Positions 2,233-64,000 of a stretch of DNA of 64,000 nucleotides are shown piece by piece. A program made the translations under genes and the position numbers. The stretch comes from Myxococcales bacterium (GTDB taxonomy: Bacteria; Lernaellota; Lernaellaia; Lernaellales; Lernaellaceae). Location of the stretch: NCBI GenBank assembly GCA_012517325.1, contig JAAYVF010000074.1:13701-77700 (forward strand), in the 5' to 3' direction. Positions within the stretch are counted from its first letter, which is position 1, and every line of letters starts with the position of its first letter. The notes beneath the pieces are model-generated. The model saw only the letters and a program-made list of their open reading frames with translations. It ran no database searches and was not told the DNA's origin.

Positions 2233-2252
2233 TCCATTCCGCATCTCAAGTC

Positions 2253-2280
2253 GCGCGCTCGATCGGGCGCGCTTTTTTTT
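2253..2280 (+). terminator. Intrinsic terminator after lpxC
   Basis: GCGCGCTC-GATC-GGGCGCGC (8 bp stem, one G-U pair) followed by T8. Confidence 0.8.
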
Positions 2281-2399
2281 ATTGAAAAAGCGGCGCCGCT
2301 CGGCTCCCGTTCGAATCCGCCGTTTTACGGGTGGTGCTGGCCTTTTGTCCATTTTTTTGCTATTTGCTTTGTATTCGGCCAACTCGAAGGGAGAGGACA

Positions 2400-34062: not shown

Positions 34063-36186
34063 ATGTCAGTGACAGTAATTGAACGAGATTTCTTCGATTC
34101 CCGAGTGATCCTGGAAACCGGCAAGATGGCCAAACAGGCCGACGGCGCCGTGATGATTCGCCAAGGCGACACCATGGTGCTGGCGACCGCCGTCGTTTCG
34201 CCGAAACCGCGCGAAGGCACGGATTTTCTACCGCTCACCTGCGATTATCAGGAAAGAACCTCCAGCGCCGGGAAGATTCCCGGGGGCTTTTTCAAACGCG
34301 AAGGACGGCCCGGCGAAAAGGAAGTGCTGACCAGTCGGCTGATCGACCGGCCGCTGCGTCCCCGCTTTCCCAAGGGCTTCGTCAACGAGATCCAAATCAT
34401 CGCCACCATCCTGAGCAAAGACGAGGTCTACGACGGCGACGTGCTGGCCATCTGCGCCAGTTCGGCCGCCTTGCACATCAGCAAGATCCCCTTCGACGGC
34501 CCCATCGCGGCGGTCCGCGTCGCCTATTGCGACGGCAAGTTCATCGCCAACCCGACGCACCAGCAGACCGATCAATCGACGCTGGACATCGTGGTGGCCG
34601 CCAGCCGCGACGCGATCATCATGGTCGAGGGCGAAACCAAATTCGTCGCCGAGGACCTGCTGATCCAGGCGCTGATGTTCGGCCAGCAGGCCTGCCTGCC
34701 GCTCATCGAGATGCAGGAAGAACTGCGCCGTCGCGTCGGCGAACCGAAGATGGAATTCGTCGCCGTATCCCTGCCCGAGGACGTTATCGCGGCGATCCGC
34801 CCGCTGGCGCAGGCCGACCTGCCCGGCGCGATCACCGTCAAGGAAAAGCACCCGCGGCGCGAAGCGATCGAGGCCGTGAAGGAAACCGTCTTCGCGAAGC
34901 TCAACGAGGGTCGCGCCGAGGAAGAACTCATCACGCGCGGCGTCTTCGACAAATGCTTCGAGGAAGTGCTCAAGGAGACGCTGCAGCACCTGGTGCTGGT
35001 CGACAAGATCCGCATCGACGGCCGCCGCTTCGACGAAGTGCGCCCGATCAGCATCGAAGCCGGTTTGCTGCCGCGCACCCACGGATCGGCGCTGTTTACC
35101 CGCGGCGAAACCCAGGCGCTGGTCACCGCCACCCTGGGCACCAGCAGCGACGAGCAGAAGATCGACAGCCTGACCGGCGAGACCTGGCGGCGCTTCATGC
35201 TGCATTACAACTTCCCGCCCTTCTCGGTCGGCGAAGTGAAGTTCTTGCGGTCGCCCGGCCGGCGCGAAATCGGCCACGGCAACCTGGCGCGCCGCGCCCT
35301 CAATCCCATCCTGCCCACCGAGGAACAGTTCCCGTACACCATCCGCATCGTCAGCGACGTGCTCGAATCCAACGGCTCCAGCTCGATGGCCACGGTGTGC
35401 GGCGGCAGCCTGTGCCTGATGGACGCCGGCATTCCGGTGTCGGCTCCGGTGGCCGGCGTGGCGATGGGCCTGCTCAAGGGCGACGGCATGAATTTCGTCG
35501 TGCTGACCGATATTCTCGGCGACGAGGATCACCTCGGCGACATGGACTTCAAGGTCGCCGGCACCGCCGAGGGCGTGACCGCCATCCAGATGGACATCAA
35601 GGTCAACGGCATCACCGAGGCGATCTTCCGCCAGGCGCTGGCGCAGGCGCACGACGCGCGGCTGCACATCCTGGGCAAGATGAACGAAGTTCTCGGCCGG
35701 CCGCGGCCCGACCTGTCGCCCTACGCGCCGCGCATCGTCACCCTGCAAATCTCGGTCGATAAGATCCGCGATCTCATCGGTCCCGGCGGCAAGACCATCC
35801 GCGCCATCATCGAGGAAACCGGCGTCAAGATCGACGTCGAGGACGACGGCCGCGTGCTCGTGGCCTCGGCCGACGGCGACGCCTCCGCCCTGGCGATCCG
35901 GCGCATCCGCGAAATCACCGCCGAACCCGAGGAAGGCAAGTACTACCTCGGCAAGGTGGTGCGCATCGAATCGTTCGGCGCCTTCGTGCAAATCCTGCCG
36001 GGCACCGACGGCCTGATCCACATCAGCCAGCTCGCCAACGAACGCGTCAACGAAGTCGAGGACGTCATCAACATCGGCGACGAGGTGCTGGTGAAGGTCA
36101 TCGAAATCGACAAGGAACGCGGCCGCGTCCGCCTGTCCCGCAAAGCGGCGCTCGGCCTCGACCCGAAAGACGTCATCGAGCAGTGA
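34063..36186 (+). CDS. pnp: Polyribonucleotide nucleotidyltransferase
   Basis: [38 protein letters not shown] and DMDFKVAG, plus KH and S1 domains. Confidence 0.98.
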
Positions 36187-40870: not shown

Positions 40871-42094
40871 TCACCGGCCGCCCGCCACTCGGACGCCGTC
40901 CACGCAGGCATAGGGAATCGTCAGCGTCAGACCGTCCGCCGCGGCGGCCAGCCGGTCGAGGCGTTTTTCCAATTCGGCGAAAACTTCCGTGCGGCGTTCG
41001 GCCGACACGATCTCCCGCCAGGTGGGAATGAACGCCAACCGCCAAAAACCGTGCGCGAACAGGGCTTGCGCCCCGGAAAATCGCCAGGTGAACTGGCGTT
41101 CCGCGACGCCGGTGATGTCGAAACCGGCGCGACGCGCCCGGTCCAGCATCCAGGCCAGCGGTTTGCGCTTGGAAAAAATGTGCGCCGGCAGGCGGTCGAG
41201 GCCGGCGGTGTCGCCGGATTCCTTCAAGATCGCTTCCAACGTCCGGTATACCTCGGTCATGCTCTCGGGCAGATTGAACGTGAACACCAACTGCGCGCCC
41301 GGCCGGGCGACCCGCGCGCATTCGGTCAGCGCGCGTTCCGGGTCCGCCACGTTGTTGAAGCCGTTGTTGGAAACCAGTAAATCAACCACGGCGTCGGCAA
41401 GCGGGATCGCCTCGGCGCGACCCTCGAGAAGCCGCACGTTGCCGACCTGCCAGGCGCGCAACTTCCGGCGAATGCGCGGCCAGCCTCCAGTCCACGGGTC
41501 CAGGCCGATCACCCGGCTGCCCGCGCCCAACCGTTGCGCCAACTCGACCAGCGGAAAGCCGGCGCCGCTGCCGATATCAAGCGCGAGGATATCACGGCGC
41601 AGCCGCACGGTTTCCAGCAGCGTCAGGCCGAACGGCGCCGACCAGAGCGGCAGATCGTCGTAGGCCTCCACGTCGAATTTTTCCGGCGGGGTTCCCTCGA
41701 GAACTTGTCCGGGAGCGCCGGCGGATGTTTCGGCCGCCTCGCGGCGCACCAGTTCCGGGCTGAACGCCGGGCAACAGACCGCCACGTATTCGGCGCCACC
41801 CGGTCCCGGCGTGAAATAGCGGATGCGGTTGCCGCGTGGCGCGACGATCGCCTGCCCCGGACCGGCGACGAGAATCCCGACATTCGTTTCGGCGCGGACT
41901 TCGCCGCGTAACACCACCGTGTATTCGTCGAATTCCGGCGTTTGCGCCGGCTCGCTCCAACCGGACGGGCTGACCATCCGCGCGACGCTGACCGCCGGGT
42001 TCTCCGTCGCCAACCGGCCGATGTATTCCTCGATCGTCTTGGGCGGCTCACCCGCGGCTTGCGCCAAGACCGGCGTCACTACTCTTGGTTTCAT
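40871..42094 (-). CDS. Cupin domain fused to class I SAM-dependent methyltransferase
   Basis: N-terminal IEEYIGR...SVARMVSPSGWSEPAQTPEFDEYTVVLRG...PAFSP (cupin); C-terminal LPLWSAPFG, LDIGSGAG, GLDPW and VSNNGFNN (methyltransferase). No stop between the two parts. Confidence 0.85.
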   Translation of the reverse strand: MKPRVVTPVLAQAAGEPPKTIEEYIGRLATENPAVSVARMVSPSGWSEPAQTPEFDEYTVVLRGEVRAETNVGILVAGPGQAIVAPRGNRIRYFTPGPGGAEYVAVCCPAFSPELVRREAAETSAGAPGQVLEGTPPEKFDVEAYDDLPLWSAPFGLTLLETVRLRRDILALDIGSGAGFPLVELAQRLGAGSRVIGLDPWTGGWPRIRRKLRAWQVGNVRLLEGRAEAIPLADAVVDLLVSNNGFNNVADPERALTECARVARPGAQLVFTFNLPESMTEVYRTLEAILKESGDTAGLDRLPAHIFSKRKPLAWMLDRARRAGFDITGVAERQFTWRFSGAQALFAHGFWRLAFIPTWREIVSAERRTEVFAELEKRLDRLAAAADGLTLTIPYACVDGVRVAGGR

Positions 42095-42139: not shown

Positions 42140-45058
42140 TCAACAGCCGCAGCTTCCCGACGACGAATCATCGTCGTCATCCGGAGTCGGCTCCGGGCCC
42201 GACCCGGAATCGTCGTCGTCATTGTCGTCGTCGTTGTCGTCACTGTCGTCGTTGTCGTCGTTATCGTCGTTATCATCGTTGTCGTCATCGACACTATCGT
42301 CGTCATCATCGTTATCGTCATCATTATCGTCGTCATCGTCATCGTCATCGTCGCCGGCCGACAGCAGGAAATCCATCGCCGCACCCAAAACCTGTTCGCG
42401 GAACTCCGGCGAAAAAATCGTTTCGAACGGAAAACCCAGGTAGATCACCTTGAAAACGCCCGTATCGGCGACGACCGCCGCGCCCGCCCCGCCGTTGTAG
42501 GTCAGGTCGGTGAAACCGCCGGCGAGCGCTTGCACGACGTCCGGGTAATCGGCGGCGTAAATGGCATACGCGTCGTAGTCGAAATCGAACGACTCGATGC
42601 CGGCAAAAATTCCGCTCGGGTCGACGCGCCCCACGCCGCTCGAATCCGCAACGTACTCGGCGCGCAGATAATCGGCGTAAAAGAGCCGGTCGGCCGCCGA
42701 CCCCATCTGCCAGAGATCCCAGCCGATTTCCGAACCGGAGATGAAGAGCGCGCCGCCATCGTCGAGGTACTCCGCCAGCCGGGCTTGTTCAGCGGCCGAC
42801 AACGAAACATCGGCCGTCGATTCCTCGCCGGCGATCCAAAGCACCGCCGGATAATCGGCCAGCGACACCGCGCCTGCCGCGACCGCCTCGTGGTCGGCCG
42901 AATCGAAATCGAGGCCGGCCGCGGCCAGCGCCTCGGCGTAGGCGATCATGTAATCGAAGGAATTCATCCGCCACAGATAGCCGCGTTCGATCGTGCCGCC
43001 GCCGTAGTAGGCCTCGGGCACGTTCGCGAAACGGTCGAGCCGATCGAAGCCGTTGACCAACAGCACGCGCGGCGCGTCGCCGGTGGAAAAAACCAGGGTC
43101 GGGGTCGGAAAGCTTTCGCCGCCGTCGTTGAACGCCGTCAGCCGGACGAAACGCACCGCGCCGTTCTCCAGGGCGCCGCGTGGCGCGAGCGTCACCAGGG
43201 TGTCCTTGGTCTCGACGGCGTCGCTCTGACCTTTGCCGGTCCGGCTCAGGTAGGCGCGATAACCCGTCGCCGGATCGCCGGCCAGGCCGCCGTAGTCGTA
43301 ATCCGGCGGCTGCCAGGCGGCAACGGCCTCGCCGTCGATCCATTGCACCGTCAAGGCGCGCGGCGGCTCGGGCAGGAAGTGCGGCGTCTCCCCGTCGCGC
43401 GCCGCGAAGTAGCGGACGGCGCCCTGATAAACCGCGCGCGCCACCAACTGGCGAAACGCCGGCTCCTTCAATTGCAACGCGTCGGCGGGCGTGTCGTGAA
43501 ACGCCACCTCGACGATGATTCCCGGCGTCTCGTCGTTGTAATTCGGATTGATCTCGCCGTACCAGTTGGTGTGCTCGCCCAGGTCGATCCATGACGCCGA
43601 CCAGCCGGCGCGGATGTCGGCCACGATTTCATCGTGGATCGCCGCGCGCAATTCCAGACTGCCCGGCACGCCGTCGAACGCGGCGTCCCAACCGCCGGAG
43701 GCGTAGGCGAAGGTACTGGTGCCGCTGCCCGGATCGGGGGCGTTGGTGTGCCAACTGATGTAGATGCCGTCCTCCCAGGCTTCGTTTTCCCACTTCACGT
43801 AACGCGGCATGGTGGTGACGGTATTGGTGACGCATTCCGGGCAGCCCATGAATTCCGCCTGGTACATCCCCGACATTTCCCAGCGCGGCTTGCCGGAATC
43901 CGCCGGCGTGCCGCCGCCGAAACGGACCGCGTCGGCGATGACGACCTTGTTGGTATCGCCGCCCTCGTTGGAGATCGTCACCCGGCGAGCGGCGGGCGGA
44001 TCGTCGCGCAGAAAGTAGAAGCGTCCCAGATCCTTCCAGGTGAAGCCGTCGCGCTGCTGGTTGACGGCCAGGATCGTGTCGCCGTCGGCGTGGTGAACCG
44101 TGACACGGCAATCGACGGCTCGGTTGGCGCCGGCCGTATACCAGAGATACACGTGGTAGAAACCGTCGGCGGGAATCTCGGCCACGAAGTCGGCGGTGGC
44201 GCTTTCGGTCGCGGCGACCTGTACCGCCAGATAATCCTCGCCGTAGTAGCCGGGCGTGCTCGTCGACGACCACCACGAACCCGTGCTGGAAAAGCCGTCG
44301 TCCAGATTGTCGACGACAACCATCGCGGGATTCAGATCGCCTTCGCGCACCGGATAAACACCGGCGCCGGCATTCCACAGGTAGGGCAGCAGATATTGAA
44401 AAACCGCTTCCGCGTTGGAAAAGTCCTCGACGAGGCCGTTGGTGTTTTCACGCTGGGTCACCCACGCGCCGAGATCTTCGTTGTAATACCACCCATGGCC
44501 GGGAGAAAGAAAAACACTTTTCCCGGACAGAAAACCTGTCGGCTGCGGCTGGCCGAAACCCGGAGGCCGCGCGTTTTTATCAGCGGTTTCGTTCGGCTTG
44601 GCGCCGACCGGCGCGGGAGTACGGACCAGGCGGCCGATCGGCTCGTAACCGCGGCGCGGATCGTCGCGCGCCATCACCTTCGCCGGCACGCCCGGCGCGA
44701 CGGACCGCATCGTCGTTCCGAGGGCCGCCATGAAGCGATCCGATACGGCCTCATCGGGCCGCGCGGCGAATCCCGGCGGCATGGTCAGAAAGAGCGTCCA
44801 GCCGGACGCGTCGCGCGCCAGACGATCCATTTTTGTACCGGCGGGAAAAAACGAGCGATAGCCGCGACCGCCTTGCACAAGCAGCCGTAAAAGGCTTTCG
44901 ACGTCGGCGGCGCTTCGCCCGTCGAAGGTCGGCGCCAGACAAACGGGCCGACCGCGATCGGACAAGACGACGCAGGCCGATCCGCCGGCGGACGACACCC
45001 TTGCCGCCGGAACCAGAAAAAGCAGCAATAAAATGGTGAGGAAGATCGACTTTTTCAT
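42140..45058 (-). CDS. Exported multidomain N-acetylmuramoyl-L-alanine amidase with Asp-rich tail ending in CGC
   Basis: ATG 45058; SPase I-type signal; amidase_3 Zn/catalytic motifs SPGHG, EDFSNAE, SWHTNA and IVEVAFHD; golvesin-like insert and FN3-like domain; tail ...DDDDDSSSGSCGC-stop. Confidence 0.85.
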   Translation of the reverse strand: MKKSIFLTILLLLFLVPAARVSSAGGSACVVLSDRGRPVCLAPTFDGRSAADVESLLRLLVQGGRGYRSFFPAGTKMDRLARDASGWTLFLTMPPGFAARPDEAVSDRFMAALGTTMRSVAPGVPAKVMARDDPRRGYEPIGRLVRTPAPVGAKPNETADKNARPPGFGQPQPTGFLSGKSVFLSPGHGWYYNEDLGAWVTQRENTNGLVEDFSNAEAVFQYLLPYLWNAGAGVYPVREGDLNPAMVVVDNLDDGFSSTGSWWSSTSTPGYYGEDYLAVQVAATESATADFVAEIPADGFYHVYLWYTAGANRAVDCRVTVHHADGDTILAVNQQRDGFTWKDLGRFYFLRDDPPAARRVTISNEGGDTNKVVIADAVRFGGGTPADSGKPRWEMSGMYQAEFMGCPECVTNTVTTMPRYVKWENEAWEDGIYISWHTNAPDPGSGTSTFAYASGGWDAAFDGVPGSLELRAAIHDEIVADIRAGWSASWIDLGEHTNWYGEINPNYNDETPGIIVEVAFHDTPADALQLKEPAFRQLVARAVYQGAVRYFAARDGETPHFLPEPPRALTVQWIDGEAVAAWQPPDYDYGGLAGDPATGYRAYLSRTGKGQSDAVETKDTLVTLAPRGALENGAVRFVRLTAFNDGGESFPTPTLVFSTGDAPRVLLVNGFDRLDRFANVPEAYYGGGTIERGYLWRMNSFDYMIAYAEALAAAGLDFDSADHEAVAAGAVSLADYPAVLWIAGEESTADVSLSAAEQARLAEYLDDGGALFISGSEIGWDLWQMGSAADRLFYADYLRAEYVADSSGVGRVDPSGIFAGIESFDFDYDAYAIYAADYPDVVQALAGGFTDLTYNGGAGAAVVADTGVFKVIYLGFPFETIFSPEFREQVLGAAMDFLLSAGDDDDDDDDDNDDDNDDDDDSVDDDNDDNDDNDDNDDSDDNDDDNDDDDSGSGPEPTPDDDDDSSSGSCGC
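42167..42352 (-). repeat. Asp-rich low-complexity coding tract
   Basis: About 60 codons dominated by GAC/GAT/AAC/AAT before the CGC terminus. Confidence 0.9.
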
Positions 45059-45084
45059 CACCGTTCCGAGATTCCAGCCCGAAC

Positions 45085-47496
45085 TCAAGGTTCGCCGGCT
45101 TTGTTCCCGTTGTCCGCCTCCGGGGATGCCGTTTCGTCCAAAACTTTTCGGATCGCCTTCGCCAAGGCGCGCGGCGCGTAGGGTTTGCCGATGAAGTGCA
45201 GACCTTTATCGATCATTCCATGATGGGCGATGATGTCCTCGGTGTACCCCGATGAAAAAAGCACCCTGGTTTCGGGATGGATTTTCGCGAACCGCTCCGC
45301 CAGTTGCCGGCCGTTGATTCCCGGCATCACGACATCGGTGAGCAGCAGGTGGATCGGCGCGGGATACTGTTCGGCGATAACCAGCGCATCACCGCCGCTG
45401 TCGGCGTGCAGCGTTTTGTATCCCAGGCGTTTGAGGACCTTGATCGCCAGCTTCCGGACCAGTTCCTCGTCTTCCACCAGAAAAACCGTCTCGTCGCCGC
45501 CGGGAATTTCCCGCGGCAGGCCGTCGCGTTCGAGTTTTTCCGCTTTCTCCTCGATCCTCGGCAGGTAGATTTTAAAGGTGGTTCCCCGGCCTTCCTCGGA
45601 ATAGACCTCGATGTTTCCGCCCGCCTGTTTCACGGCGCCGTAAATCGTCGCCAAACCCAGGCCCGTGCCCTTGCCTTTTTCCTTGGTGGTGAAAAAGGGT
45701 TCAAAAAGATGCGCCTTGGTTTCTTCGCTCATCCCGAAGCCGGTATCGCTGACCGCGAGCATCACGCATTTTCCCGCCCGGGGATAGGAATGAGCGCGGC
45801 AGTATTCCTCGTCCAATTCGACGCCCGCCGTCTCGATCAGCAGGTTGCCGCCGTCGGGCATGGCATCGCGAGCGTTGATCGCCAGGTTCACCAGGATTTG
45901 CTCGAATTGCCCGGGATCGATCTTGACCGCGTCCAGGCCTTCCCCGAGGATGATTCGCAATTCGATGTCCTCGCCGATCAATCGACCCAACATCTTGTGC
46001 ATCGACGAAATCAGCTCGTTCAGGTCCAGTACCCGCGGCTCGATGAGTTGCTTGCGCGAAAAGGCCAGCAGTTGCCGGGTCAATGCGCCCGCGCTTTCCG
46101 CCGCCTTGCCGATCTCCGCCAGCGTCTCCGCCAACGGATCGTTCGGCTTCAAATCCAACAACGCCAGTTGTACGTTGCCGCTGATGCCGGTCAACAAATT
46201 GTTGAAATCGTGCGCCACGCCGCCCGCCAGACGGCCGACCGCTTCCATTTTCATCGCCTGTTGCAGTTGATCCTGGAGCTTCCGTTGCTCCTGATCGGCC
46301 TTGGCGCGCTCCGAGATGTCGCGGATATTCAGGACGATCCCTTGAACGGCCGGATCGTGCAACAGGTTGCTACCGATCGTTTCGAGGTGAACCCAGTTGC
46401 CGTTTTTATGCCGGTAACGATACTCGGCTTTGCGCACCGCGCCCGGCACTTGCAGGCCTTTGGCAAAAGTGTCGCGGATCATCGGCAAGTCGTCCGGATG
46501 AATGCCGTCAAAGGCCGAAACGCCATTCAGTTCCTCCGGCGAATAACCGAGAAGGCGCGTGATCTGATCGCTGGTATAGATGGGAATGCCGTAGCGGTCC
46601 AAAATCTGGATCACGTCGTTGGAATTCTGCACCAGCAAGCGGAAGCGTTTTTCGCTCTCGCGCAGCGCCTCTTCCACCCGCTTGCGGTCGGTGATGTCCT
46701 CGTGCACCAACGTGACCTCGCGGATTTTTCCGGCTTCGTCCCGGACCGGAAAAGCCCGCGCCTGAACCCAGCGCGTACACCCTTTCCCGAGAATTTTCTC
46801 CGCCGAATACTCTACGGCGGGAAGCACGACGGATTCGCCGGCGAACGCCTGCTTGATGAACGGCAGAATGCCGACCTCCGCGAGTTGGGGATCTTCCAGC
46901 ATGTTGTACTTTTCCAAATCGTCCAGCGTCGCACCCCAGAGCCGTTCCCACTCCTGATTGACCTGGATCGTCTTCCCGGTTTCATCCATGATCTGGATGC
47001 TGAACGGCGACTGTTCGACCAGTCCCTTGAACCGCACCTCGCTTTCCCGCAGGGCCTTTTCCGCCTGTATGCGGTCGGTGATGTCCCGCGCCACGGCAAA
47101 AGTGATGCCCTGCTCCGCCTTCGGATGGGAAGTCCACTCCAGGTGGTGGTAAACGCCGTCGGCGGCCCGATAGCGGTTTTCGAAGTGAACGACGCGCCTC
47201 CCGGCTTTCAGTTCCCGCTCGATGACCTCGATGGTCTTGGCGACATCGTCCGGGTGGATGAATTCCAGGAAAGGCCGGCCGAGCAAGTCGGCTTCCGAAT
47301 AACCCAGCACATCCTGAAAAGCCGGGTTGATCTTGAGGAAGGTGGCCGTGTTGATATCGGCGATGCAAACCAGATCCAGGGACATCTGAAAAATCATTGC
47401 CAAGTCTTGTTCGGCCTGTTCCAATTCGGCGATACGCCGGTGCGCTTCCCGCAATTCCCGCAGGAGTTGCTCTCTTGATTTACTATCGTCGAGCAT
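45085..47496 (-). CDS. Cytoplasmic hybrid histidine kinase (3 PAS/PAC - HisKA - HATPase - REC)
   Basis: Three PAS/PAC repeats ending in DIT/DIS-xRK; H-box [11 protein letters not shown]; [10 protein letters not shown] and GTGLGLAT; REC with [13 protein letters not shown] and GKP. Confidence 0.93.
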
Positions 47497-52828: not shown

Positions 52829-54427
52829 TTATTTCTTTTTCGTATACAACACTAACCGCTGGCCGGGCTTGAGCGATTCGGAATGCAGACCGTTCCAGCG
52901 CTTGATGTCCTTGACGTTCAGCCCGTGCCGGTGCGCAATGCTCCACAGGTTGTCGCCCGAACGCACCCGGTAGCTGATCCGCGAACCGGAACCGGCCTGC
53001 TTTTTCCCGACCTTGGCCGTCATCGCCGCGGATTTTGCCGCGTCGGCCCCCGCCTCTGCGTTCAGTTGAGCGGGTTGTTCGTCTTTCGTCGCCTGCGGAG
53101 TCACGTCAAAAGTGACGGTCATCAAGCTGGCGATTCGCCGGCCGGAATTATCGGTGGTGATCGCCATTTGCCGCCGAATCATCGGCGCGGCGAATCCCTT
53201 GGGCGCCCAGTTGGCTTGCGCCAGGATGACCGGCGTCGAGGGCGGGAAGCGGCGCGCCGGGAGGCTCAGCGGCCCCGGAACTCGCGAGACGCCGCCACGG
53301 CAGGCGACGCGATAGGAGCGGCCGGCGCGGATGCTGTTGGAGCGCAAGCCGTTCGCCCGCTTCAACGCGGCCACGGAGGTGTGGTACCGCCGGGCGATTC
53401 CACCCAGGGTGTCGCCTTTACGGGCGCGATGATAGGTGTAGAAAGTCGGCGGCTTGACCTTACCGGCCGCCAAGAGGATCGGATAAGCCCGCCGGCCCAA
53501 TTCCTGGGCGCGCGGATTGTAGAAACGGACGTGATAATGCGTCGCATGCCCCCGGGCATGCCGGACGATCGACTGTCGACTGCCGTTGGGGTACTGGAAG
53601 ATCGTCGCCAGCCAGGCGGGATCCTCGCCGATGGAAAGCGCGTACTCGTAAAGCTCGCGTTGGATTCGCGAGTCGAGCAGAATGATTTCGATATCCGCAT
53701 GCACCACGAAGGCGCGGACCAGGGCCCAGTTGCGCGGCAGGTCGAAGGTGCCGTGGTTGCCGGGCGTATACCAGGGCGAACCGTCGGTGAAGTAGAAACC
53801 GACATCCGCGTCACGACCCGCCTGGTGACTGACGTGGCGATTGAGCCGGCCGCCGTCCTCGTCGCTGATGTCGCCGAGGTTCAGCGGCGGGGTATTGGGA
53901 AACGCCTCGTTGACCGTGGTGATCGCCGTGCGTAAGCCATCGATTGTTTCCTGGGTGCCCCAGGTTTCCCGCGGATTGACGATGCGCCACCGCGGGTCTT
54001 CCGGCATTTGCATTCCGCCCATCAAAGCGCCGCTGTTGGTGAAACCGATCGACATGGCTCCCAGAGCCGTCGGGTTTTCCTGCAACAGTTTTTGGAAATC
54101 AGCGTCGCTTATATCGGCGAAAGGCAATTCGGTTGGAGAAAGCAGGGAATAGGGAGATGGATTCGTGGATTGGAGACCGTCGGCGATGACTCCATCTTCG
54201 CCTTCGTCGCTGGCGGCATCCCCTTCTTCGTCGTTAATGGCCAGCGGAATCGTCTCTACGGTTGTCGCCTGATCGATGACGGGGGGAGTATCCCCGGCAT
54301 CCTCATCACCGTCTTCCTGACCGTCGTCCTGGTCGCTCTCATCGGGTTCCATCGCCAGGGCGGTCGAAACGAACACCAGCGTCACCAGGAAAATACTTAG
54401 ATACCACCACCAGTGTTTCCGGGTCAT
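52829..54427 (-). CDS. MepA-like murein endopeptidase with two LysM domains
   Basis: ATG 54427 after GGAGG; signal peptide; acidic N-terminal region; GDIS...HVSHQAGRDAD and HATHYHVRF (LAS Zn sites); LysM motifs GDTLGGIARRY and GDNLWSIAHRH. Confidence 0.88.
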   Translation of the reverse strand: MTRKHWWWYLSIFLVTLVFVSTALAMEPDESDQDDGQEDGDEDAGDTPPVIDQATTVETIPLAINDEEGDAASDEGEDGVIADGLQSTNPSPYSLLSPTELPFADISDADFQKLLQENPTALGAMSIGFTNSGALMGGMQMPEDPRWRIVNPRETWGTQETIDGLRTAITTVNEAFPNTPPLNLGDISDEDGGRLNRHVSHQAGRDADVGFYFTDGSPWYTPGNHGTFDLPRNWALVRAFVVHADIEIILLDSRIQRELYEYALSIGEDPAWLATIFQYPNGSRQSIVRHARGHATHYHVRFYNPRAQELGRRAYPILLAAGKVKPPTFYTYHRARKGDTLGGIARRYHTSVAALKRANGLRSNSIRAGRSYRVACRGGVSRVPGPLSLPARRFPPSTPVILAQANWAPKGFAAPMIRRQMAITTDNSGRRIASLMTVTFDVTPQATKDEQPAQLNAEAGADAAKSAAMTAKVGKKQAGSGSRISYRVRSGDNLWSIAHRHGLNVKDIKRWNGLHSESLKPGQRLVLYTKKK

Positions 54428-54500
54428 TCTTACCTCCGGGGGGTCGATCCGGTCGACCGGGCTCCTCCCCTTTCCCAATGCCTCCAGAAAAATTTGATCG

Positions 54501-54599: not shown

Positions 54600-56183
54600 C
54601 TATCCCTGGTCCAAAACTTCCCGCACCTTGTAGGTCAGGGTTTCGATCGTGAAAGGCTTGGCGATGAAGTGGGTCTTTTCGTCCAACACCCCGTGATGAC
54701 CCAGGATATCCTCGGTATATCCGGACATATAGAGGATTTTAAATCCTTTTCGCAGAGTGGAAAGCTTTTCGATCAATTGTTTACCGTTCATCTGCGGCAT
54801 GATGACATCGGTTAAAACCAGATCGAGCCGCCCGTCGTACTTTTCCAAGACCTCCAAGGCCACTTTCCCGTCCTCGGCCTCGAGAACCCGATAGCCCTGC
54901 CGCTCCAGAATCCGGCAGGCCAATTGACGGACCATCGGTTCGTCCTCGGCGACCAGGATGGTTTCCGACCCGCCTGGCAGAACTTCAACCTCCTGCTTGA
55001 CCGGCATCGGCTCGACCGCCGAAACCCGCGGTAGATAGATGCGGAAGGTGGTGCCGATGCCAAGCCGGGATTCCACTTCGATAAAGCCGTTGTTCTGCTG
55101 AATGATCCCGTAAACCGTTGACAAACCCAGTCCGGTGCCCTTTCCCACCTCCTTGGTGGTGAAAAACGGCTCGAAAATATGCTTCAGTTCCTCTTCTGCC
55201 ATCCCGACGCCCGTATCGGTGATGGAAATCCGGGCATAGGAACCCGGCAGACGATCCTGACTGTCCTCGCAATCGCTTTCGGTCAGCACCACCGGGTCGA
55301 TCCGGATCATGACCATGCCGCCGTCCGGCATGGCATCGCGCGCGTTGACGACCAGATTGACCAATACCTGCTCCATCTGGCCGACATCCAAATGCACGAA
55401 GCACTCCTCGGTGACGGGCTGGATCATCAGATCGATGTGTTCGCCGATCAAGCGTTTCAACATCTTGGTCGAGTCGCCGATGATGGTATTGAGATTGACC
55501 GATTGCGGTTTGATCATCTGCCGGCGGCTGAAAGCAAGAAGCTGTTGGGTGATGTTGGACGCCCTTTCGGCGGCCCGGCGGATCTCACCGGCGGTTTCCC
55601 GCATCGTCTTGGGGTCGAAATCCGGGTCCGTCAACAGGTCGGCATAGCCCAGGATGCCGGTCAGAATATTGTTGAAATCGTGGGCGACGCCGCCGGCCAG
55701 CCGGCCGATGGATTCCAGTTTTTGCGCCTGTTGCAATTGTTCCTGCAGCCGCTCCTTTTCTTCCTCGGCCTGCAGTTTCCCCGTGATGTCATGGCCGACC
55801 ATATGGATGGCCGGCCGGCCCTGATAATCGGTCGGGATCATCGACAATTCGACCACGATTTCCTCGCCGTTCAGGCGCGTCAGACGAACCTGAAGGGAAT
55901 CGAGGCTGGTCGCATTGTTTTTCAAGGTCTTCAGAACATTGACGATGCGACCGCGCTGTGTTTCCTGAATGTAATCGGCGAAAGCCCGGCCGATGAACCG
56001 CGTCGGGTTGTCGTCACCCAGCAGGCGGGCGCCGGTGCGGTTGATGAAGGCGATTTGTTCCTCATGCAGCACGACCACGAGGCTGGGCGCGCTTTCCACC
56101 AACAGCCGGTACCGCTCCTCGCTCGCGGCCAAGGCGGCTTCCGCTTTGCGGCGGTCGGCGATTTCGCGGTTGAGCTGCTCGTT
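54600..56183 (-). CDS. PAS-HisKA-HATPase-REC part of a hybrid kinase; continues in frame from the upstream ORF across a single TGA
   Basis: [29 protein letters not shown] and REC (AEDE, LTDVIMP, AKP). The frame is open from 56183, and the track start TTG 56132 lies inside a coiled coil with no clear RBS. Confidence 0.85.
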
Positions 56184-58136
56184 TCATTTGCTGATCTGGG
56201 CGTTCAATTCCTCCAGCGAATCATTGGACGCGACGAGCAAATTCACCAGACGTTTCAACTCTTCTTCGGCTTTTTTACGCTGGCTGATATCGCGCACGAT
56301 GGAGAGAATCACCGTTTTTTGCTGATATTCGATTTGCCGGTTGTTGATCTCCACCGGCACCGGGTTGCCGTCCGCCCGGATCAGCGTGGCTTCGAAAACC
56401 TGCTGACCCTGAAGCTCCATTTCCTGCATGTGATGGGCGATGTCCGGCTGGCATTCCGGGGAGCCCAGTTCGGCCATGGTCTTGACCCACAGTTCCTGGC
56501 GGGAAAAGCCGAGCAACGTGCAGGCCGTTTCGTTGACGGCCAGGAAGGGCTGGTTGACGCCGTGGATGAAAAAGGCGTCGGCGGCGCTTTCGAACAGCAT
56601 GCGATACCGCGATTCCGATTCGGCCAGCGCCAGCTCCGCGCGCTTGCGCGAAGTGATGTCCAGGTAAACGCCGATAATGCCTTGAATGTCTCCTTGGGGT
56701 CCGACCAGCGTCGAGCGGCTGAGCAAGACTTCCCTAGTGGCGCCGCTGGCCACCACCAGGGTGGTTTCCGTCATTTCCACACCGGGGTGAGCCAGCAATT
56801 CCTCGTCTTGTTCTCGCAGGGTTTCGGCTTGTTCCAAAGTGAATAATTCGAAGTCGGTCTTGCCGATGATTTCTTCGCGGGTCGCGTTGAGATGGCGGAA
56901 AAACGCGTCGTTGACGATGACGTAACGTCCTTCGGCGTTTTTATAAAAAACCGGATTCGGCAGGGCGTCGAAGACGTTTTGCAGAAACCGGATCTGATCT
57001 TCCTTCTCCTGCTGCCTTTGTCGCAAATCGCCAATGTTCTTGAATTGACCGATGACCCCGATGATGTTGCCGCCCGTACCGCGCAAGGGGAAAAAAGTCG
57101 CCCGGTAGGGAATTGCGCCGGTTCGCGGGTCCGGGAGGTCGTAATCGCGCTCGAGGTGGCTTTCGCCCATCAGCACCCGATGGACCGGACACTCATGCCA
57201 ATCGCAATGCGAACAAGGAAAAATCTCGTGGCATGACTTTCCGACGATGTTTTCCTCCGTTTGGCCGGCGATCTGACAAAATTGTTTGTTCACCCGAATG
57301 ATCCGCAACTGCCGGTCGATGATGCTCAAGCCATCGGCGGTGTTTTGCATGATTTGATCGAGGGCGCCTTCGGCGCGGGCGGTCGCTTCCTGAGCGGAAA
57401 ATTGCGCCACTTGTTCGCGACGATTGTAGCGAATAATCAGGAAAAGAATAATGACACCCGCGATCCAAACCAACAAATGGGCGATCGCGGACTGTTGCAG
57501 ATTGAACCGATGAATTACCGTCAACGACGACATGTTCAGCGAAACGCTGACCGCGCCGGCGATCTGCGATGAGCCAGATCCCAGATGTTCATGGCAACGC
57601 CGGCAACTTTCGCCCGCCGGCATCGGACGAACCATGCGGAAAAAGGGCGTCCCGTTGAGATCCACTTGTTCGGCCACTTCCGCCGCGCCGCCCGCCAGGC
57701 GATGCAAGGCATTCGTTTCCCATTCGTCGGCCTGATTGACCGGATTGATCGGATTGAGCGCCACCAGATGCACCCCGGCCGCGCCGGCTCGCGGCTTCTC
57801 CTGCCAGACAATCCGCATCATGTATTCCGGATTGATCAAAGTCAGGGTCTGGCCATCGGTGGTAGTCAGATCGCGATCGTCGACATGAAGAAACGGGTTG
57901 GGACTCGGGGAGCCTTTTCCTTCCAGGGCGTAAACCCCGCCGACGCCGGCGCTCCAGGCATGGTAGGCCAGATCGCGTTCGGAAGCGGCGACCGCTTCAT
58001 TGTAGGCGATCTCCCGGCAATCGGCCTTTTCGGCCCACAGTCGCAACAAACCGGACAGCACCAGAATCAACGTCCATCCCAGAATGAGATAGAAGAACGT
58101 CGACTTGGAAAAGGTCCCGATTTTCTGTTGCGTCAC
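56184..58136 (-). CDS. Membrane sensor part (DUF3365 c-heme domain + 3 PAS) of the same hybrid kinase, ending at an internal TGA
   Basis: Two TM segments flanking a periplasmic domain with NPINPVNQADEWE and SCRRCHE (CxxCH); three PAS/PAC domains; no kinase domain before the TGA. Confidence 0.85.
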   Translation of the reverse strand: MTQQKIGTFSKSTFFYLILGWTLILVLSGLLRLWAEKADCREIAYNEAVAASERDLAYHAWSAGVGGVYALEGKGSPSPNPFLHVDDRDLTTTDGQTLTLINPEYMMRIVWQEKPRAGAAGVHLVALNPINPVNQADEWETNALHRLAGGAAEVAEQVDLNGTPFFRMVRPMPAGESCRRCHEHLGSGSSQIAGAVSVSLNMSSLTVIHRFNLQQSAIAHLLVWIAGVIILFLIIRYNRREQVAQFSAQEATARAEGALDQIMQNTADGLSIIDRQLRIIRVNKQFCQIAGQTEENIVGKSCHEIFPCSHCDWHECPVHRVLMGESHLERDYDLPDPRTGAIPYRATFFPLRGTGGNIIGVIGQFKNIGDLRQRQQEKEDQIRFLQNVFDALPNPVFYKNAEGRYVIVNDAFFRHLNATREEIIGKTDFELFTLEQAETLREQDEELLAHPGVEMTETTLVVASGATREVLLSRSTLVGPQGDIQGIIGVYLDITSRKRAELALAESESRYRMLFESAADAFFIHGVNQPFLAVNETACTLLGFSRQELWVKTMAELGSPECQPDIAHHMQEMELQGQQVFEATLIRADGNPVPVEINNRQIEYQQKTVILSIVRDISQRKKAEEELKRLVNLLVASNDSLEELNAQISK

Positions 58137-58425
58137 TCCAAATCCCTTATTTTCGTTTTGACCTCATAACGCCGTTGGAAAAGTAGCAAATTCCGTGGTT
58201 TTCAGAGGCAATCACATGCGGAGTTTGGTTTTCCCCCTTCCATGGTGTTAATCTGATCGACACCTCAGCGATAAAAGATAAGCGAAAAAATACTCAACAA
58301 CGTGAAATATCAAGAAATTCCAACAGCCTTATTCATCGCGCCCCGGAAGTGGTTTTCATGCTTTGACTTGCCGCAAAGGGAAGTGTACTTTCACTGACAC
58401 GGAGAACTCTGCAACCGGAGAACAA

Positions 58426-58767
58426 ATGACTCAAATGGACTGGATCGGCGTCGGCATCCTTGCGGGTTCATTGGCTCTTTTGGGGATTTTCCTGCGTTTT
58501 CGCTTCATTCGGCAGCATCCGGTCCTGCTGGTCAGTTTTATCGGCAACCCCGGTCTGGTCGGCGTTCTGGCCGCTTTTGCCTTCTGGTACCGCGACAATC
58601 CGACCTGGGGCACTCCGCTCTGGATCGGCGCCATGTTGCTGACCGTTCCGACGGCGTTGACGGTCATGATCGTGGCGCCAAAGGCTTATTTCAAGCAAAT
58701 TCAAGCCGAAATCGACAAAATGCCGCCTTCGGAAGCCGCTGAAAGCGCCGCACCGGATAAAAAGTAG
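58426..58767 (+). CDS. Small three-TM membrane protein of unknown function
   Basis: GGAGA RBS and ATG 58426; three hydrophobic segments and a charged tail. Confidence 0.7.
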   Translation: MTQMDWIGVGILAGSLALLGIFLRFRFIRQHPVLLVSFIGNPGLVGVLAAFAFWYRDNPTWGTPLWIGAMLLTVPTALTVMIVAPKAYFKQIQAEIDKMPPSEAAESAAPDKK

Positions 58768-58826: not shown

Positions 58827-61800
58827 TCATTCCCGGCGATAGATTTCGGCCAGCAGTTGTTTGGCTCCTTTGACCACCTCGTGTTCCGGGGGACCGCCGG
58901 CGATGATTTCCTGTAGGAGATCGACGGCGCGTTTTTTATCGCCGAGACGAACATAAAGGCGGGCTGCGTTGGCCTTGGCAAAAAGCGCTTCCTCGCTTTG
59001 CGGGTACTCCTGAACGATCGACAAGTATTCCCGCAGGGCCGGGGTAAAATCTTCCTGCGAAAAGTACAAATCGGCCAGGGTGAGGCGGGCATTGCGCACT
59101 ACACTTGGGTCTTCGGTTTGTTCGGCGATGAGTCGCCGCAAGATCGCTTTCTGTCCGTCCACATTTCCCGACTCGCCGTATAGATCGGCCAACAATTGCA
59201 TCGCCCGCACGGTAATCCGGTCATTGGGATAGCGCTCGATGATCGACTGGAATTGCGTGATCGCGGCAGCCGTCTGGCCTGCGGCGCGTGTCACTTTAGC
59301 CAATCCCAATTCGGCCTCTATCGCCGCGACCCGATCCGCCGCGAAAGTCGCGCCGACGAATAAAAAGTCTTCCCTGGCTTTGGCCAGGCGGCCCGCTTGC
59401 AGATCCAATTGAGCACGGCGCAAATAAACCGGCGCCATGGCCGGCGTTTCGCCGTAAGCCTGGATCAGCAGCGCCAACTGTCGGTCGGCGCCATCCCAAT
59501 CCAGCCGTTGGACGAAATGCTCGGCCGCATTGAGCCGCAACCGGATGGGCAACGACGGGTCGGCCGGCGAATGCCGGACCGCGCGGTCGACCAATGCCTC
59601 GAACTCAGCCATCCGATCGGCGGTTAACGACCAATTGGCCCAATCGGCAAGCACTTCGCCGGCGATCGGTTGGCCGGAAGCAGCGTCGCTCGCTTGTTTG
59701 AAATAATCGCCCGCGGTTTGCGGCTGCTGCAACGCCACGCTTAAATTCGCCAGGTCGAGCAGGGTCCGAGCGCGGGTCGGCGGCGCGATTTTGTTTTCGG
59801 CCAGGACGCGGCGGAAAGTCGCTTGGGCTTCAGTCAACCTACCGGCTTTTTGCTGCGCCCGCCCCAATCCCAGCAAGGCTTGCGCTTTCTGCTCGACGTC
59901 GGACGCGAAGCCGAGGGCCGCCTCGAATTCACCGGCCGCCTCGTCGCGCCGGCCGATCCGTTCCGCCCAATCGGCCAGTCCGAGATGAATGGGATAGGCG
60001 ATCGCCGCACTGCCCTTCACCTCGGAAATCAAATCGGTCATTTCCTTTTTCGCCCGCGGGTAATCGCCGCCCTCTCCGTACAACCGCACCAATTCCGTCG
60101 CCGCCATGGCGCCATCCGCCGAACCGGGCGAACGCCGTAGCACTTCGCGATAGACCTTGGCGGCCGCGTCAGGATCGCCGCTCTGCACCATCAATTCCGC
60201 CAAGCCCATTTCCACCGGACCGGACTTGGCGGCCTTGGTTTCATTGGCCATCTCCAGAAAGATCGCTTTGGCGTGTTCGACGTCGCCCTGTTGCAAATAG
60301 AGTCGCGCCATTTCCGTCCGCGCGCTTCGCCGGACATTCACGTCGGCGGTTTCCGTGAGCGCGCGGCGATAAACCGTCATGGCTTCGGCGATCCGGCCTT
60401 GCGCCCGATCGATCTCGGCAATCCCTTTTTCGGCCTGCCAGCGAGCCACGGGCAGATGCCCGTACTGATCCGTCATCGATTCGAAGGTTTTTTGCGCCTC
60501 CGCGAAGCGTCGTTCCGCCAGGAAAGATTGGGCGGTTTTTTCCAAAGCCGGCCAACGCAAATCGCTCTCGACCGGTGTTTCGATCGCTTGCCGATAATAC
60601 TGGCGGGCCGCTTCATAATCCTGCTTTTCCATGGCCATCCGGCCCAAGCCCAGCCAGGCATCAAAGCGAAAACGCGGGTCGATGCTTTGCTCCCACATCC
60701 GAAATATTTTTTCCGCTTCCGCCGGATTTTGGCTTTCCAACCGGACGGCCGCCAACGTGGCTTCCAACGAATGCTTCAGCGCCGCATCGCCGAATTGGGC
60801 GATCCCTTCGGTCAACACGGCGGCGGCATCATCCCAATTTCCGCTCCGACGGAACAAATCCGCCAATTGCTGGTAGCCGTCGCGCCTGACGATCGGGGAA
60901 ATTTGCGAATCGACGGTAAGCTCGCGGAATGTTTGCCGCGCCTCTTCCGTTTTGCCTTGCGCCTTGAAAACCGTCCCCAGGCCCAGCCGGGCTTGTCCTT
61001 TGAGATCGGGATCGGGAACCTCGTTCGCCAAATTGCGATAAATCTCCAAAGCCTCATCGAACCGGCCGACGCCGGTTAATTCGGCCGCTTGATCCAAGGA
61101 GGCATTCCATCGCGCCAAAACGCTGTCGGGAAAGCTTTGTTCCATTTCCCGCATCAGGGTTTCCGCCGTCGCTTCGTCCCCCTGCTGCCGATAAAGACGG
61201 ATCATCGACAGATAGGCATCCACCTTTTCCTTTTCGCCGAACGGCAATTGCAGGATTCGCCGATAGTCGGCGATGGCTTCGTCCGGATGACCGGTCATGA
61301 TCATCAGCGAAGCCAGGCCCTGGAAAGCCGCGCCCTGGACGGCGGGAAAATCGACGAATTCCTCGGCGGTCAATTGATACAAGCGTATGGCGTTGTCCGG
61401 GCGCTTGCCGGCCGCGGCGATTTCCGCGAGCGCCAAAAGCGCTTGGGCGCGTTCGGCGGGGTATTCCTTTTGGTCGGCGATTCGCCGGAGCAGCGTTTCA
61501 GCGGTCGCATAATCGGCGTGTTGCCGCAGGATTTCGGCCCAATAGAAATCTGCGGCGAAAACCTGTCCCGGGTCGCCGCTGATCGCGTTTCGCCAGCGAG
61601 TAAAAACTTCTTCGGCGTCCACCTGTCGGTTCCGGTTCATGAGGAGGGAAATCAAGGAACGATTGGCTTCCGCCAGGTTCAATTCGTTGTCGGACGACGA
61701 GACGATTTTTTCATACCCGGCGATGGCTTCGTCCGACCTGCCCTGTCGAGCCAGGATCGACAGCAAAGCCAACTCGGCGGCATCGACCTCGGCCGGATGA

Positions 61801-64000
61801 TCCGGGTATTTCTTTTTCAGATCCGCCAGAATTCCCCGCGCCCGGTCGGCCTGCCCGTTTTCCGCGGTTACCCGAATGATCGCGGTCAAAATCGACAAAC
61901 GAGGTTCCGCCTGTTCGGCGAGCGACAAGGCTTGCTCGTACTCGCGGATGGCTTGCGGGTAATCGCGCTGTTGTTCGGCGATCAGTCCCAAGCCTTGCCT
62001 GGCTTGAAAAGCCACCGCCGAACCGTCGCCCGGCGAATCGGCCAACACTTGTTGATAAATGGAAATCGCCTCGCTGAATCTTGCCAGGCTGAAATAGCTT
62101 TTCGCCAGGCCCAATAACGCGCGAAGGGATGCCGACTGATCGACTGATTGCCGGGAGAGAGCAAGAAATAGCTCCGCCGCCTCCGTGGCTTTTCCCGCCT
62201 GAAGAAAATATTCGGCGACCGCCAGGCCGGTGCTTGCCAGCACATTCGGATCATCGGCGTATTCGCTCTGAATTCGCTCCTGGACCTCTCGGACTTTCTT
62301 CTCGCGGTTCAGTTGAAAATAGATCTTCAGCAACGCTTGCAGGCCTTCCAGGCGGATCTCCGGACCGCCGCTGTCGGCGATGGATTCGTAAATCCGGATG
62401 GCGTTTTCGATATTTCCATGCCGATATTGCAGGTCGGCCAGCTGCAAGCGATTGGAAAAACCCTGATCCGGGTTGTAGGGAATGCGTTTCAGCAGTTCGG
62501 CATTGATCTGGGCGACCCGGGTCAGATCGCCCTTGGACAAATAGTACTCCTTCTTCTTTTCCAAGGCTTGAGCCAGCCAGAACCGCGTCCCGCTTGCCGC
62601 TATTTCATCGATTAATTGGAGTGCTTGACCGGAATTGTTTTGTTTCAGCAAATTATCCGCGAGCCAGAACTTGACAGCGAGCCGCAATGAAGAATCGATG
62701 CCCCAGTTATTCACCCATTGGTTGAAGTAATGGCGTTCCTCATAAAGTCCTTCGCGTGCCCTGAGGTCCAGGGCAATTTGCTTTACGGCCTCAAAAACGA
62801 TGGCCTGATCCTTTGAAAAATCGGTAACCCGACGATAAATCCGCATCGCCTCCGCAGTGCGGTCCAAGGCTTGCAACAATCTGGCTTTCGCCATGAGCAC
62901 CTCGGCGAACGGCGACGGCGCCGCGGCGAAATCCTGAAGCAGCCGGTCGTACAACTCCATCGCTTCCACCGGCCGCTCGGCGGCGATCAACGCTCTCGCC
63001 CGCAGAAGCAATAGGTTTTTGAAATAAATTCCCGGCGGACGATTCGCCATCCTCGCGTCAATGCGGGCAATCGCCTGATCCGGCTTTTTCTGCAAGAGGT
63101 CCAATTCGACGAGCCGTGCGGTGAGGTCGAGCCAACGCAAGCCGTGATCGTGATCGGCCGACAACAATTCCTCGAGCCGGGCGCTGGCTTCCGCGTAACG
63201 GAACCAGCTTTCCAGATAATTCGCCAAACAAAGTCCGGCGGAGATCCCCAGGGCATCTTGCAAATGTTGTTGAAAAAGAAGCTGTAGTTTGTCGAACGCC
63301 TCGCTATTTTCCTCGACGCCGTTCAACATTTGGCATTGGACCAGGATCTCCGCTTCGGTCGAAACTTCCTGATTTTCAGGAAATCGCTGCTTTATTTCAG
63401 AAAAAATCGCCAGCCCGTCTTCCGACAGGGCCAACGATTTGTTCAATTCGACCCGAAGACGTTCGAGACTGATTTGGGCCAGCAGACGAGGCCCGGTGAT
63501 TTGCTTTTCAAGTCGAACATAATAGGTATCGGCGTTCGCGAAACAACCATGGCGATAAAGGTACTTTGCTCCGGCAAAGGATTCCCAGCCGATGGTTTCG
63601 CCTTGGTTGATCGGTGTCCGCGTCTGCTCCGCCAGCAATTCCCGCGCCAGCGAAAAGTCGCCGTCGGTCTTGGCCAATTCAACTAATCGTAACCAGGCTT
63701 CCGAAAGCAGAGGATGGTCGCTGTATTGTTGCGTCAGGCTCCAGATTTCATTTTCGGCGGCCCGGGTTTTACCCAACGCCGCCAGAATATCGGCATATTC
63801 CAAATGCATCTGAAAAATCGAGGTGAAAATGTAGGCATTGTTGAGCAGGTAGAATTTCCATTGGGGGCCCAGGTTGTTCAACTTCTGGTTTAGATAATTA
63901 TTGACGCTGATGATAGGCCGACTTGGCTTTTGCTCGACCTTTTCTCCCACGGGGTCTACCTTCTCGCAAAGCAAACCATCCAAAGAAAGTTCTTGCCCCA
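58827..64000 (-). CDS. Giant TPR-repeat protein, N-terminus beyond the window
   Basis: The frame is open to the window edge upstream of TTG 63983. More than 1,700 codons of tandem helical repeats (e.g. ALLGLAKSYFSLARFSEAISIYQQVL; ARLGLGTVFKAQGKTEEARQTF). Confidence 0.88.
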   Translation of the reverse strand, partial: GQELSLDGLLCEKVDPVGEKVEQKPSRPIISVNNYLNQKLNNLGPQWKFYLLNNAYIFTSIFQMHLEYADILAALGKTRAAENEIWSLTQQYSDHPLLSEAWLRLVELAKTDGDFSLARELLAEQTRTPINQGETIGWESFAGAKYLYRHGCFANADTYYVRLEKQITGPRLLAQISLERLRVELNKSLALSEDGLAIFSEIKQRFPENQEVSTEAEILVQCQMLNGVEENSEAFDKLQLLFQQHLQDALGISAGLCLANYLESWFRYAEASARLEELLSADHDHGLRWLDLTARLVELDLLQKKPDQAIARIDARMANRPPGIYFKNLLLLRARALIAAERPVEAMELYDRLLQDFAAAPSPFAEVLMAKARLLQALDRTAEAMRIYRRVTDFSKDQAIVFEAVKQIALDLRAREGLYEERHYFNQWVNNWGIDSSLRLAVKFWLADNLLKQNNSGQALQLIDEIAASGTRFWLAQALEKKKEYYLSKGDLTRVAQINAELLKRIPYNPDQGFSNRLQLADLQYRHGNIENAIRIYESIADSGGPEIRLEGLQALLKIYFQLNREKKVREVQERIQSEYADDPNVLASTGLAVAEYFLQAGKATEAAELFLALSRQSVDQSASLRALLGLAKSYFSLARFSEAISIYQQVLADSPGDGSAVAFQARQGLGLIAEQQRDYPQAIREYEQALSLAEQAEPRLSILTAIIRVTAENGQADRARGILADLKKKYPDHPAEVDAAELALLSILARQGRSDEAIAGYEKIVSSSDNELNLAEANRSLISLLMNRNRQVDAEEVFTRWRNAISGDPGQVFAADFYWAEILRQHADYATAETLLRRIADQKEYPAERAQALLALAEIAAAGKRPDNAIRLYQLTAEEFVDFPAVQGAAFQGLASLMIMTGHPDEAIADYRRILQLPFGEKEKVDAYLSMIRLYRQQGDEATAETLMREMEQSFPDSVLARWNASLDQAAELTGVGRFDEALEIYRNLANEVPDPDLKGQARLGLGTVFKAQGKTEEARQTFRELTVDSQISPIVRRDGYQQLADLFRRSGNWDDAAAVLTEGIAQFGDAALKHSLEATLAAVRLESQNPAEAEKIFRMWEQSIDPRFRFDAWLGLGRMAMEKQDYEAARQYYRQAIETPVESDLRWPALEKTAQSFLAERRFAEAQKTFESMTDQYGHLPVARWQAEKGIAEIDRAQGRIAEAMTVYRRALTETADVNVRRSARTEMARLYLQQGDVEHAKAIFLEMANETKAAKSGPVEMGLAELMVQSGDPDAAAKVYREVLRRSPGSADGAMAATELVRLYGEGGDYPRAKKEMTDLISEVKGSAAIAYPIHLGLADWAERIGRRDEAAGEFEAALGFASDVEQKAQALLGLGRAQQKAGRLTEAQATFRRVLAENKIAPPTRARTLLDLANLSVALQQPQTAGDYFKQASDAASGQPIAGEVLADWANWSLTADRMAEFEALVDRAVRHSPADPSLPIRLRLNAAEHFVQRLDWDGADRQLALLIQAYGETPAMAPVYLRRAQLDLQAGRLAKAREDFLFVGATFAADRVAAIEAELGLAKVTRAAGQTAAAITQFQSIIERYPNDRITVRAMQLLADLYGESGNVDGQKAILRRLIAEQTEDPSVVRNARLTLADLYFSQEDFTPALREYLSIVQEYPQSEEALFAKANAARLYVRLGDKKRAVDLLQEIIAGGPPEHEVVKGAKQLLAEIYRRE

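Follow-up and report, generated by a model that had tools for sequence, protein, structure and literature searches.

Does an in-frame TGA that divides an otherwise undamaged sensor kinase gene represent a mutation, an error in the data or a codon that is read through? The question is raised by a 64,000-nucleotide (nt) stretch of contig JAAYVF010000074.1 (assembly GCA_012517325.1, deposited as a Myxococcales bacterium), hereafter the window, in which the minus strand at 54600-58136 encodes a hybrid sensor histidine kinase interrupted at 56184-56186. An initial annotation, made from the letters alone, had proposed a recent nonsense allele, a sequencing or consensus error, or functional readthrough giving a sensor-only decoy plus a full-length kinase. 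Our comparisons argue for the first of these: the TGA is probably a derived nonsense allele that arose recently from CGA within the species; it would behave as a null or strong hypomorph and yield mainly a sensor-only truncated protein.

An in-frame TGA and its sense allele

Translation of 54600-58136(-) gives a single gene of 1,179 codons, comprising the 1,178 codons noticed initially and a terminal TAG, with one internal stop at codon 651. Around it, the minus strand reads GCC CAG ATC AGC AAA TGA AAC GAG CAG CTC AAC CGC GAA ATC. The stop leaves a 650-codon sensor open reading frame (ORF) upstream (56184-58136) and 527 in-frame codons downstream. As first described, sensors and kinase lie on opposite sides: Pfam and hydropathy analyses place two transmembrane (TM) helices, a Tll0287-like domain and three PAS domains, without an output domain, in the upstream ORF, and a PAS, a HisKA, a HATPase_c and a Response_reg domain, each above its Pfam cut-off, in the downstream codons. 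All kinase and receiver motifs downstream of the stop are intact, and we saw no further decay in either half. A shared frame alone is unremarkable, since chance has put several other pairs of adjacent genes in the window into one frame; what raises the case for one broken gene above chance is the combination of complementary domains, a continuous linker across the stop and a sense codon at the site in other populations.

The sense codon was found in other data sets of the same species. Just four indexed runs had contigs over the junction (X1 to X4). Codon 651 is CGA in two sludge metagenomes from different studies, X1 (3.3x depth) and X3 (3x), both at least 99% identical to the window, and in the biogas fermenter metagenome X2, which is about 97% identical and covers the site at 11.9x inside a 5,785-nt contig. 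These three independent DNA data sets carry G at +56186, that is CGA (Arg) on the minus strand, where the window has A; in X2 the preceding codon is also changed, synonymously, from AAA to AAG. The fourth, metatranscriptome X4 (2.8x), matches the window with no mismatch and has TGA. No contig over the junction was found in eight further runs (X12, X13, X14, X15, X6, X7, X8 and X9), and a junction search limited to RNA runs listed none. Close relatives thus have a sense codon at this position, the outcome that the initial annotation had associated with mutation, as opposed to a conserved TGA, which it had associated with programmed readthrough; this refutes the programmed-readthrough reading and confirms the ordinary one, a single transition from CGA.

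The X2 allele, rebuilt from 102 listed differences without indels, is an uninterrupted ORF of 1,178 sense codons with Arg651. Its differences from the window fall at codon positions 3, 1 and 2 in the ratio 74/21/7, and the synonymous to nonsynonymous codon changes are 37:14 upstream of the site and 34:12 downstream, indicating that the two halves have been under the same purifying selection, as parts of a single protein. Divergence from X1 is far smaller, since the pieces of X1, about 1.9 kb in total, differ from the window at three sites, the stop among them. The mutation is therefore very recent, which explains why no further decay is seen, and this distance of about three single nucleotide polymorphisms in some 1.9 kb is too short for relaxed selection downstream of the stop to be measured. 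CGA is the ancestral state and TGA a derived one that segregates within the species. A rearrangement was also considered, on account of many apparent joints, and of spikes in depth (up to about 400x), at 55070-55203 and 55606-55739; these coincide with the conserved coding stretches of the G2 box and the H box, respectively, and were rejected as short kinase contigs of other organisms.

The TGA itself is present in several assemblies. The 650-amino acid (aa) product is known in two versions that differ by L502R, P0002 (NCBI, on a 94,874-nt contig) and P0125 (ENA and Logan, on a 95,010-nt contig). Exact look-ups of P0002 and of P0001, the 510-aa database protein from the downstream part, matched no contig; P0125 maps to the ENA assembly ERZ928041 (L041) and the Logan assembly (L042) of run ERR1876141, project PRJEB19890. 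Over 9,953 and 6,988 bases, respectively, their loci differ from the window at 56632 only, and both read AGCAAATGAAAC, i.e. TGA. In X4, which belongs to a different study, a 173-nt contig spans 56028-56200 with zero mismatches and so contains TGA. Since the ENA, Logan and X4 contigs all agree, an assembler artefact is unlikely, and the allele is represented both in a metagenome run and, from another study, in an RNA run. As to position 56632, the only one at which the window departs from the ENA assembly in about 10 kb, it lies in codon 502, within the linker between the second and third PAS domains (SRKRAE[L]ALAESESRY); the window has CTG (Leu), and ENA, Logan and X2, probably also X1, have CGG (Arg). 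Either the sample is polymorphic, or the TGA is found with Leu as well as with Arg at codon 502.

Restart, recoding and other explanations

We found no convincing start for the kinase half, in agreement with the initial annotation. The earliest in-frame start after the stop is the TTG at 56132 (codon 669, 56130-56132), used by the gene caller for the 510-aa product and preceded only by GGAAG at -11 to -7. The next candidates, TTG 56102 and GTG 56099, do have a GAGGAG, yet this lies 12-15 nt upstream. These possible restart codons are 52-85 nt past the stop, no in-frame ATG occurs for more than 100 codons after it, and the Shine-Dalgarno (SD)-like motifs before the candidate starts are weak or badly spaced. 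By comparison, well-defined genes of the window (those for PNPase, IF-2 and an 803-aa PAS kinase) have GGAG or GAGG 5-9 nt upstream of their starts, and the GTG start of the sensor ORF at 58136 has AAGGGA 7-12 nt upstream. A consensus scan of the minus strand revealed no promoter-like site between the halves. With neither an SD at proper spacing nor an ATG, P0001 reflects a gene-caller default and is not evidence of a real start; the kinase half has no credible independent start.

The organism uses the standard genetic code. TGA is a normal terminator in the window, ending the PNPase gene (34063-36186) and many ORFs with high GC at third codon positions (GC3) at their expected lengths, and GC content is 60%. 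An alternative code with UGA as a sense codon (tables 4/25) was discarded on the grounds that TGA terminates conserved genes. Selenocysteine is excluded for practical purposes, the homologous codon being Arg and not Cys or selenocysteine, with no selenocysteine insertion sequence (SECIS)-like hairpin after the UGA; the stop lies in a helical linker, not at a redox site. C-to-U RNA editing was likewise set aside, the DNA assemblies already carrying T. The 91-nt segment that includes the UGA and the bases after it (56110-56200(-)) folds no better than shuffled sequences (z = -0.54), no Rfam family matched at gathering thresholds in the whole window, and no tRNA genes were found in it. UGA is the leakiest stop codon in Escherichia coli and Bacillus subtilis (PMC10570021; PMC7918605), with readthrough in E. 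coli K-12 reporters of about 2% at 37 °C and 4% at 25 °C (PMC10570021), and an in-frame stop in a gene that shows no other decay is a poor indicator that function is completely lost (PMC7918605).

How, then, do the competing explanations fare? It is unlikely that the gene works as a functional split, tolerated or favoured, in which a membrane sensor is made alongside a soluble PAS-kinase-receiver protein, the latter by re-initiation at TTG 56132 (or TTG 56102/GTG 56099), and the two may interact through their PAS and coiled-coil parts. The downstream part does retain complete PAS4, HisKA, HATPase_c and REC domains, a common stand-alone architecture, has nearby restart codons and a GAGGAG, and belongs to an allele recovered in data sets of two different studies, with RNA covering the junction. 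However, the start signals and internal promoter-like sites described above are wanting, the split is not found in the 97% identical strain, X1 or X3 and so does not count as an evolved design, all relatives found for the sensor part have an output domain, and there has been too little time for measurable selection on the split form. We consider an error of sequencing, consensus or assembly, with CGA as the true codon, to be less likely still. The difference is a single base, the three TGA assemblies may share reads and X4 contributes one contig at a depth of 2.8; against this, T is read in the window, in the MEGAHIT-style contig k127_197551, in the Logan contig and in the RNA-derived X4 contig of another study, the window and the ENA assembly differ at 56632 and hence are not simply the same consensus, and the site has no homopolymer or repeat.

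A programmed or regulated UGA readthrough, or other recoding, that sets a defined ratio of decoy to full-length kinase is very improbable. The known leakiness of UGA, the A that follows it and the intactness of both halves would suit such a mechanism, but codon 651 is CGA in three other populations, the RNA around it has no unusual fold or Rfam match, and any readthrough here would be of the background kind of any UGA. The case made by Belinky et al. (2021; PMC7918605) for apparent readthrough likewise concerns in-frame stops in otherwise undegraded genes, as here with TGA; it relies on stops that orthologues share at the same position and on dN/dS <1 downstream of them, and fails for a stop that is not conserved within its own species. 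As for UGA being decoded as selenocysteine or as another sense codon, nothing beyond the in-frame UGA itself speaks for it, and the Arg codon in other populations, the lack of a SECIS-like hairpin or Rfam match, the use of TGA to end PNPase and many ORFs, and the GC content of 60% leave it a negligible probability.

Under the nonsense-allele reading, which we favour, the locus is one gene, which encodes a membrane-bound hybrid kinase with a TM helix, a predicted extracytoplasmic haem-c sCache/Tll0287-like domain, a second TM helix, four PAS domains, HisKA, HATPase_c and a receiver. In the lineage of the window, a single C-to-T transition converted the CGA (Arg) of codon 651 into TGA, in the helical linker between the third and fourth PAS domains. 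Ribosomes starting at GTG 58136 would then mostly terminate at the UGA, releasing a 650-aa membrane sensor without output, and the kinase-receiver part would be made only in traces, either through readthrough of the UGA by a near-cognate (Trp) tRNA or through weak re-initiation at TTG 56132. The allele would be a null or strong hypomorph of the signalling pathway and, as such, an incipient pseudogene.

Several points weigh against this reading. The evidence consists of assembled contigs, not raw reads, at low depth in X1 (3.3x), X3 (3x) and X4 (2.8x). The three assemblies with TGA (window, ENA and Logan) perhaps derive from one run or project, which makes the X4 contig the only clearly separate confirmation, and a metatranscriptome can also contain DNA. 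A few differences of X2 near contig or stretch ends, at about 55606-55790 and 56896-56984, are unlisted, so that the rebuilt ORF is established base by base only outside these stretches. The loss of function is something that we infer from the sequence; a 2-4% leak at the UGA may be enough for a signalling protein, and a re-initiated 510-aa product could be active, given how common its architecture is in nature. We give only a slim chance to residual or altered function through such a re-initiated, soluble PAS-kinase-receiver protein. It is similarly doubtful that digester populations retain the TGA allele because it is advantageous in reactors to lose or attenuate the pathway, whose haem-c sensing input is possibly NO or redox state, or because a leaky UGA and a sensor-only product form a tunable decoy and kinase pair.

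The nonsense polymorphism is an event of a well-known kind and involves no new mechanism; its value lies mainly in annotation. The deposited 650-aa (P0002/P0125) and 510-aa (P0001) proteins are halves of one gene that should be flagged as a disrupted kinase and not listed as a sensor-only protein and a soluble kinase. The pair of intact and nonsense alleles in one uncultured species could be used to mark strains in time series from digesters, or as a natural test of how important an sCache_heme-PAS hybrid kinase is in reactors.

Domain architecture and relatives of the kinase

All features of the gene lie on the minus strand. The sensor part begins with a predicted TM helix at aa 13-33 (58038-58100), followed by the Tll0287-like/sCache_heme domain at aa 97-184 (57585-57848; PF11845, 53.3 bits against a cut-off of 24.1) and a second predicted TM helix at aa 215-237 (57426-57494). 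Both helices were called where a 19-residue Kyte-Doolittle window exceeded 1.6, and the position of these hydrophobic segments on either side of the Tll0287-like domain fits a predicted extracytoplasmic placement. The domain contains a CXXCH haem-c motif, CRRCH, at aa 178-182 (57591-57605). The Tll0287-like family (DUF3365, PF11845) has been re-classified in a preprint as haem-c Cache sensors, and its CXXCH motif is reported to be 99% conserved (PMC12889525).

Three PAS domains follow, at aa ~261-363 (57048-57356; Pfam PAS_8 and PAS_3), aa 384-499 (56640-56987; PAS_4 and PAS) and aa 520-619 (56280-56579; PAS_9). The helical linker that holds the stop spans aa 620-672 (56121-56279) and leads to the fourth PAS domain at aa 674-785 (55782-56117; Pfam), residues 23-134 of the downstream product. 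The HisKA dimerisation and phospho-acceptor domain (PF00512) occupies aa 811-873 (55518-55706) and scored 46.9 bits against a cut-off of 26.9; its GGVAHDFNN (aa 815-823), which includes the H-box HDFNN at aa 819-823, aligns with homologues. HATPase_c (PF02518; aa 919-1037, 55026-55382; 79.9 bits) has the N box NARDA at 931, the G1 box DTGVG at 974 and the G2 box GKGTGL at 998. The receiver domain (PF00072; aa 1060-1171, 54624-54959; 74.2 bits) has the acidic pocket AEDE at 1063, the phospho-acceptor motif TDVIMP at 1109 and the Lys motif AKPF at 1159. Separately, the first PAS domain contains a Cys/His-rich stretch, CHEIFPCSHCDWHECPVH (aa 302-316, 57189-57233(-)), with the spacing C-X5-C-X2-C-X4-C, which is foreign to ordinary PAS profiles and may be a binding site for a metal or an Fe-S cluster.

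When the protein database was queried for orthologues, the junction segment and the N-terminal sensor each retrieved only products of this locus, the next best matches having at most 45% and 30% identity, respectively. GTDB representative genomes contained only paralogue-level relatives (24-45% identity), and the exact junction pattern, with R/Y degeneracy, occurred in neither JGI metagenome contigs nor GTDB genomes. The alignment of distant homologues was uninformative at codon 651, the long linker being mostly not alignable; a comparable linker was present only in P0010, whose aligned sequence continues across it. Every database relative found for the Tll0287-like sensor part (P0121-P0124) has an output domain, histidine kinase or GGDEF, in the same chain, indicating that the sensor-only form is not a known design among these relatives. 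Soluble proteins of about 510-550 aa with the arrangement PAS-HisKA-HATPase-REC are common in nature (P0003, P0023, P0025 and P0036).

Sequence comparison, with identities of no more than 45%, places the gene as a new and distant member of those multi-PAS hybrid kinases that have an sCache_heme input. It resembles the sCache_heme-histidine kinase fusions described previously (PMC12889525) in its N-terminal domain between two TM helices, its CRRCH motif and, in the intact allele, the fusion to PAS and HisKA/HATPase_c domains. Unlike them, it has an unusually long cytoplasmic part, with four PAS domains and a receiver, and the fusion is broken in the window strain, leaving the sensor with no output in its chain; haem binding is a prediction here. 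With the multi-PAS CckA-like hybrid kinases of Desulfobacterota, Acidobacteriota and other phyla (30-45% identity) it shares PAS S-box repeats with their linkers, GGVAHDFNN, HATPase_c and a C-terminal REC; however, neither the protein database nor the GTDB representatives contain an orthologue of it above 45% identity, and CckA is a label of the source annotation and does not imply orthology. The allele itself is comparable to the strain-specific nonsense alleles, or incipient pseudogenes, of other bacterial sensor kinases, in that one transition separates it from a sense codon in close relatives, no decay has yet set in and it was annotated as two ORFs. It differs from them in coming from an uncultured digester and sludge bacterium known from metagenomes only.

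Genomic surroundings and host

In the metatranscriptomes X4, X12 and X14 the kinase gene was barely covered. The same three runs covered a neighbouring LysM/M74 peptidase gene (54300-54474) at a depth of about 8, and X4 and X12 covered a small ORF upstream of the kinase (58425-58500) at about 2-3. The low coverage of the kinase relative to its neighbours fits a weakly expressed regulator and is in no way decisive. Further upstream on the same strand, a giant TPR protein with pentapeptide-repeat and many TPR matches (58827-63983(-)) runs off the window; it has at least 1,718 aa and was called with 2,028 aa in the ENA assembly (1-3310).

The window is rich in signalling genes (45085-47496(-), 13890-15983(+) and 3554-5548(+)), namely a second PAS-PAS-HisKA-HATPase-REC hybrid kinase, a histidine kinase in which the receiver domain is matched twice, and a PEGA-domain Ser/Thr protein kinase. 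It also contains a further in-frame pair: a 982-aa Golvesin_C-domain protein (42140-45088(-)) ends in TGA and is followed, 45 nt on and in the same frame, by a 407-aa ORF with high GC3 (40871-42094(-)). These are probably two ordinary neighbours, in frame by chance.

The PNPase encoded at 34063-36186(+), in a window that also contains the gene for IF-2 (28236-30962(+)), has its best GTDB representative match at 59% identity, in metagenome-assembled genomes of Binatia. The host belongs to an uncultured lineage without a close relative among GTDB representative genomes. Near-identical DNA was found only in metagenomes of sludge, biogas fermenters and anaerobic digesters, and in one soil run (0.06 of the sampled words).

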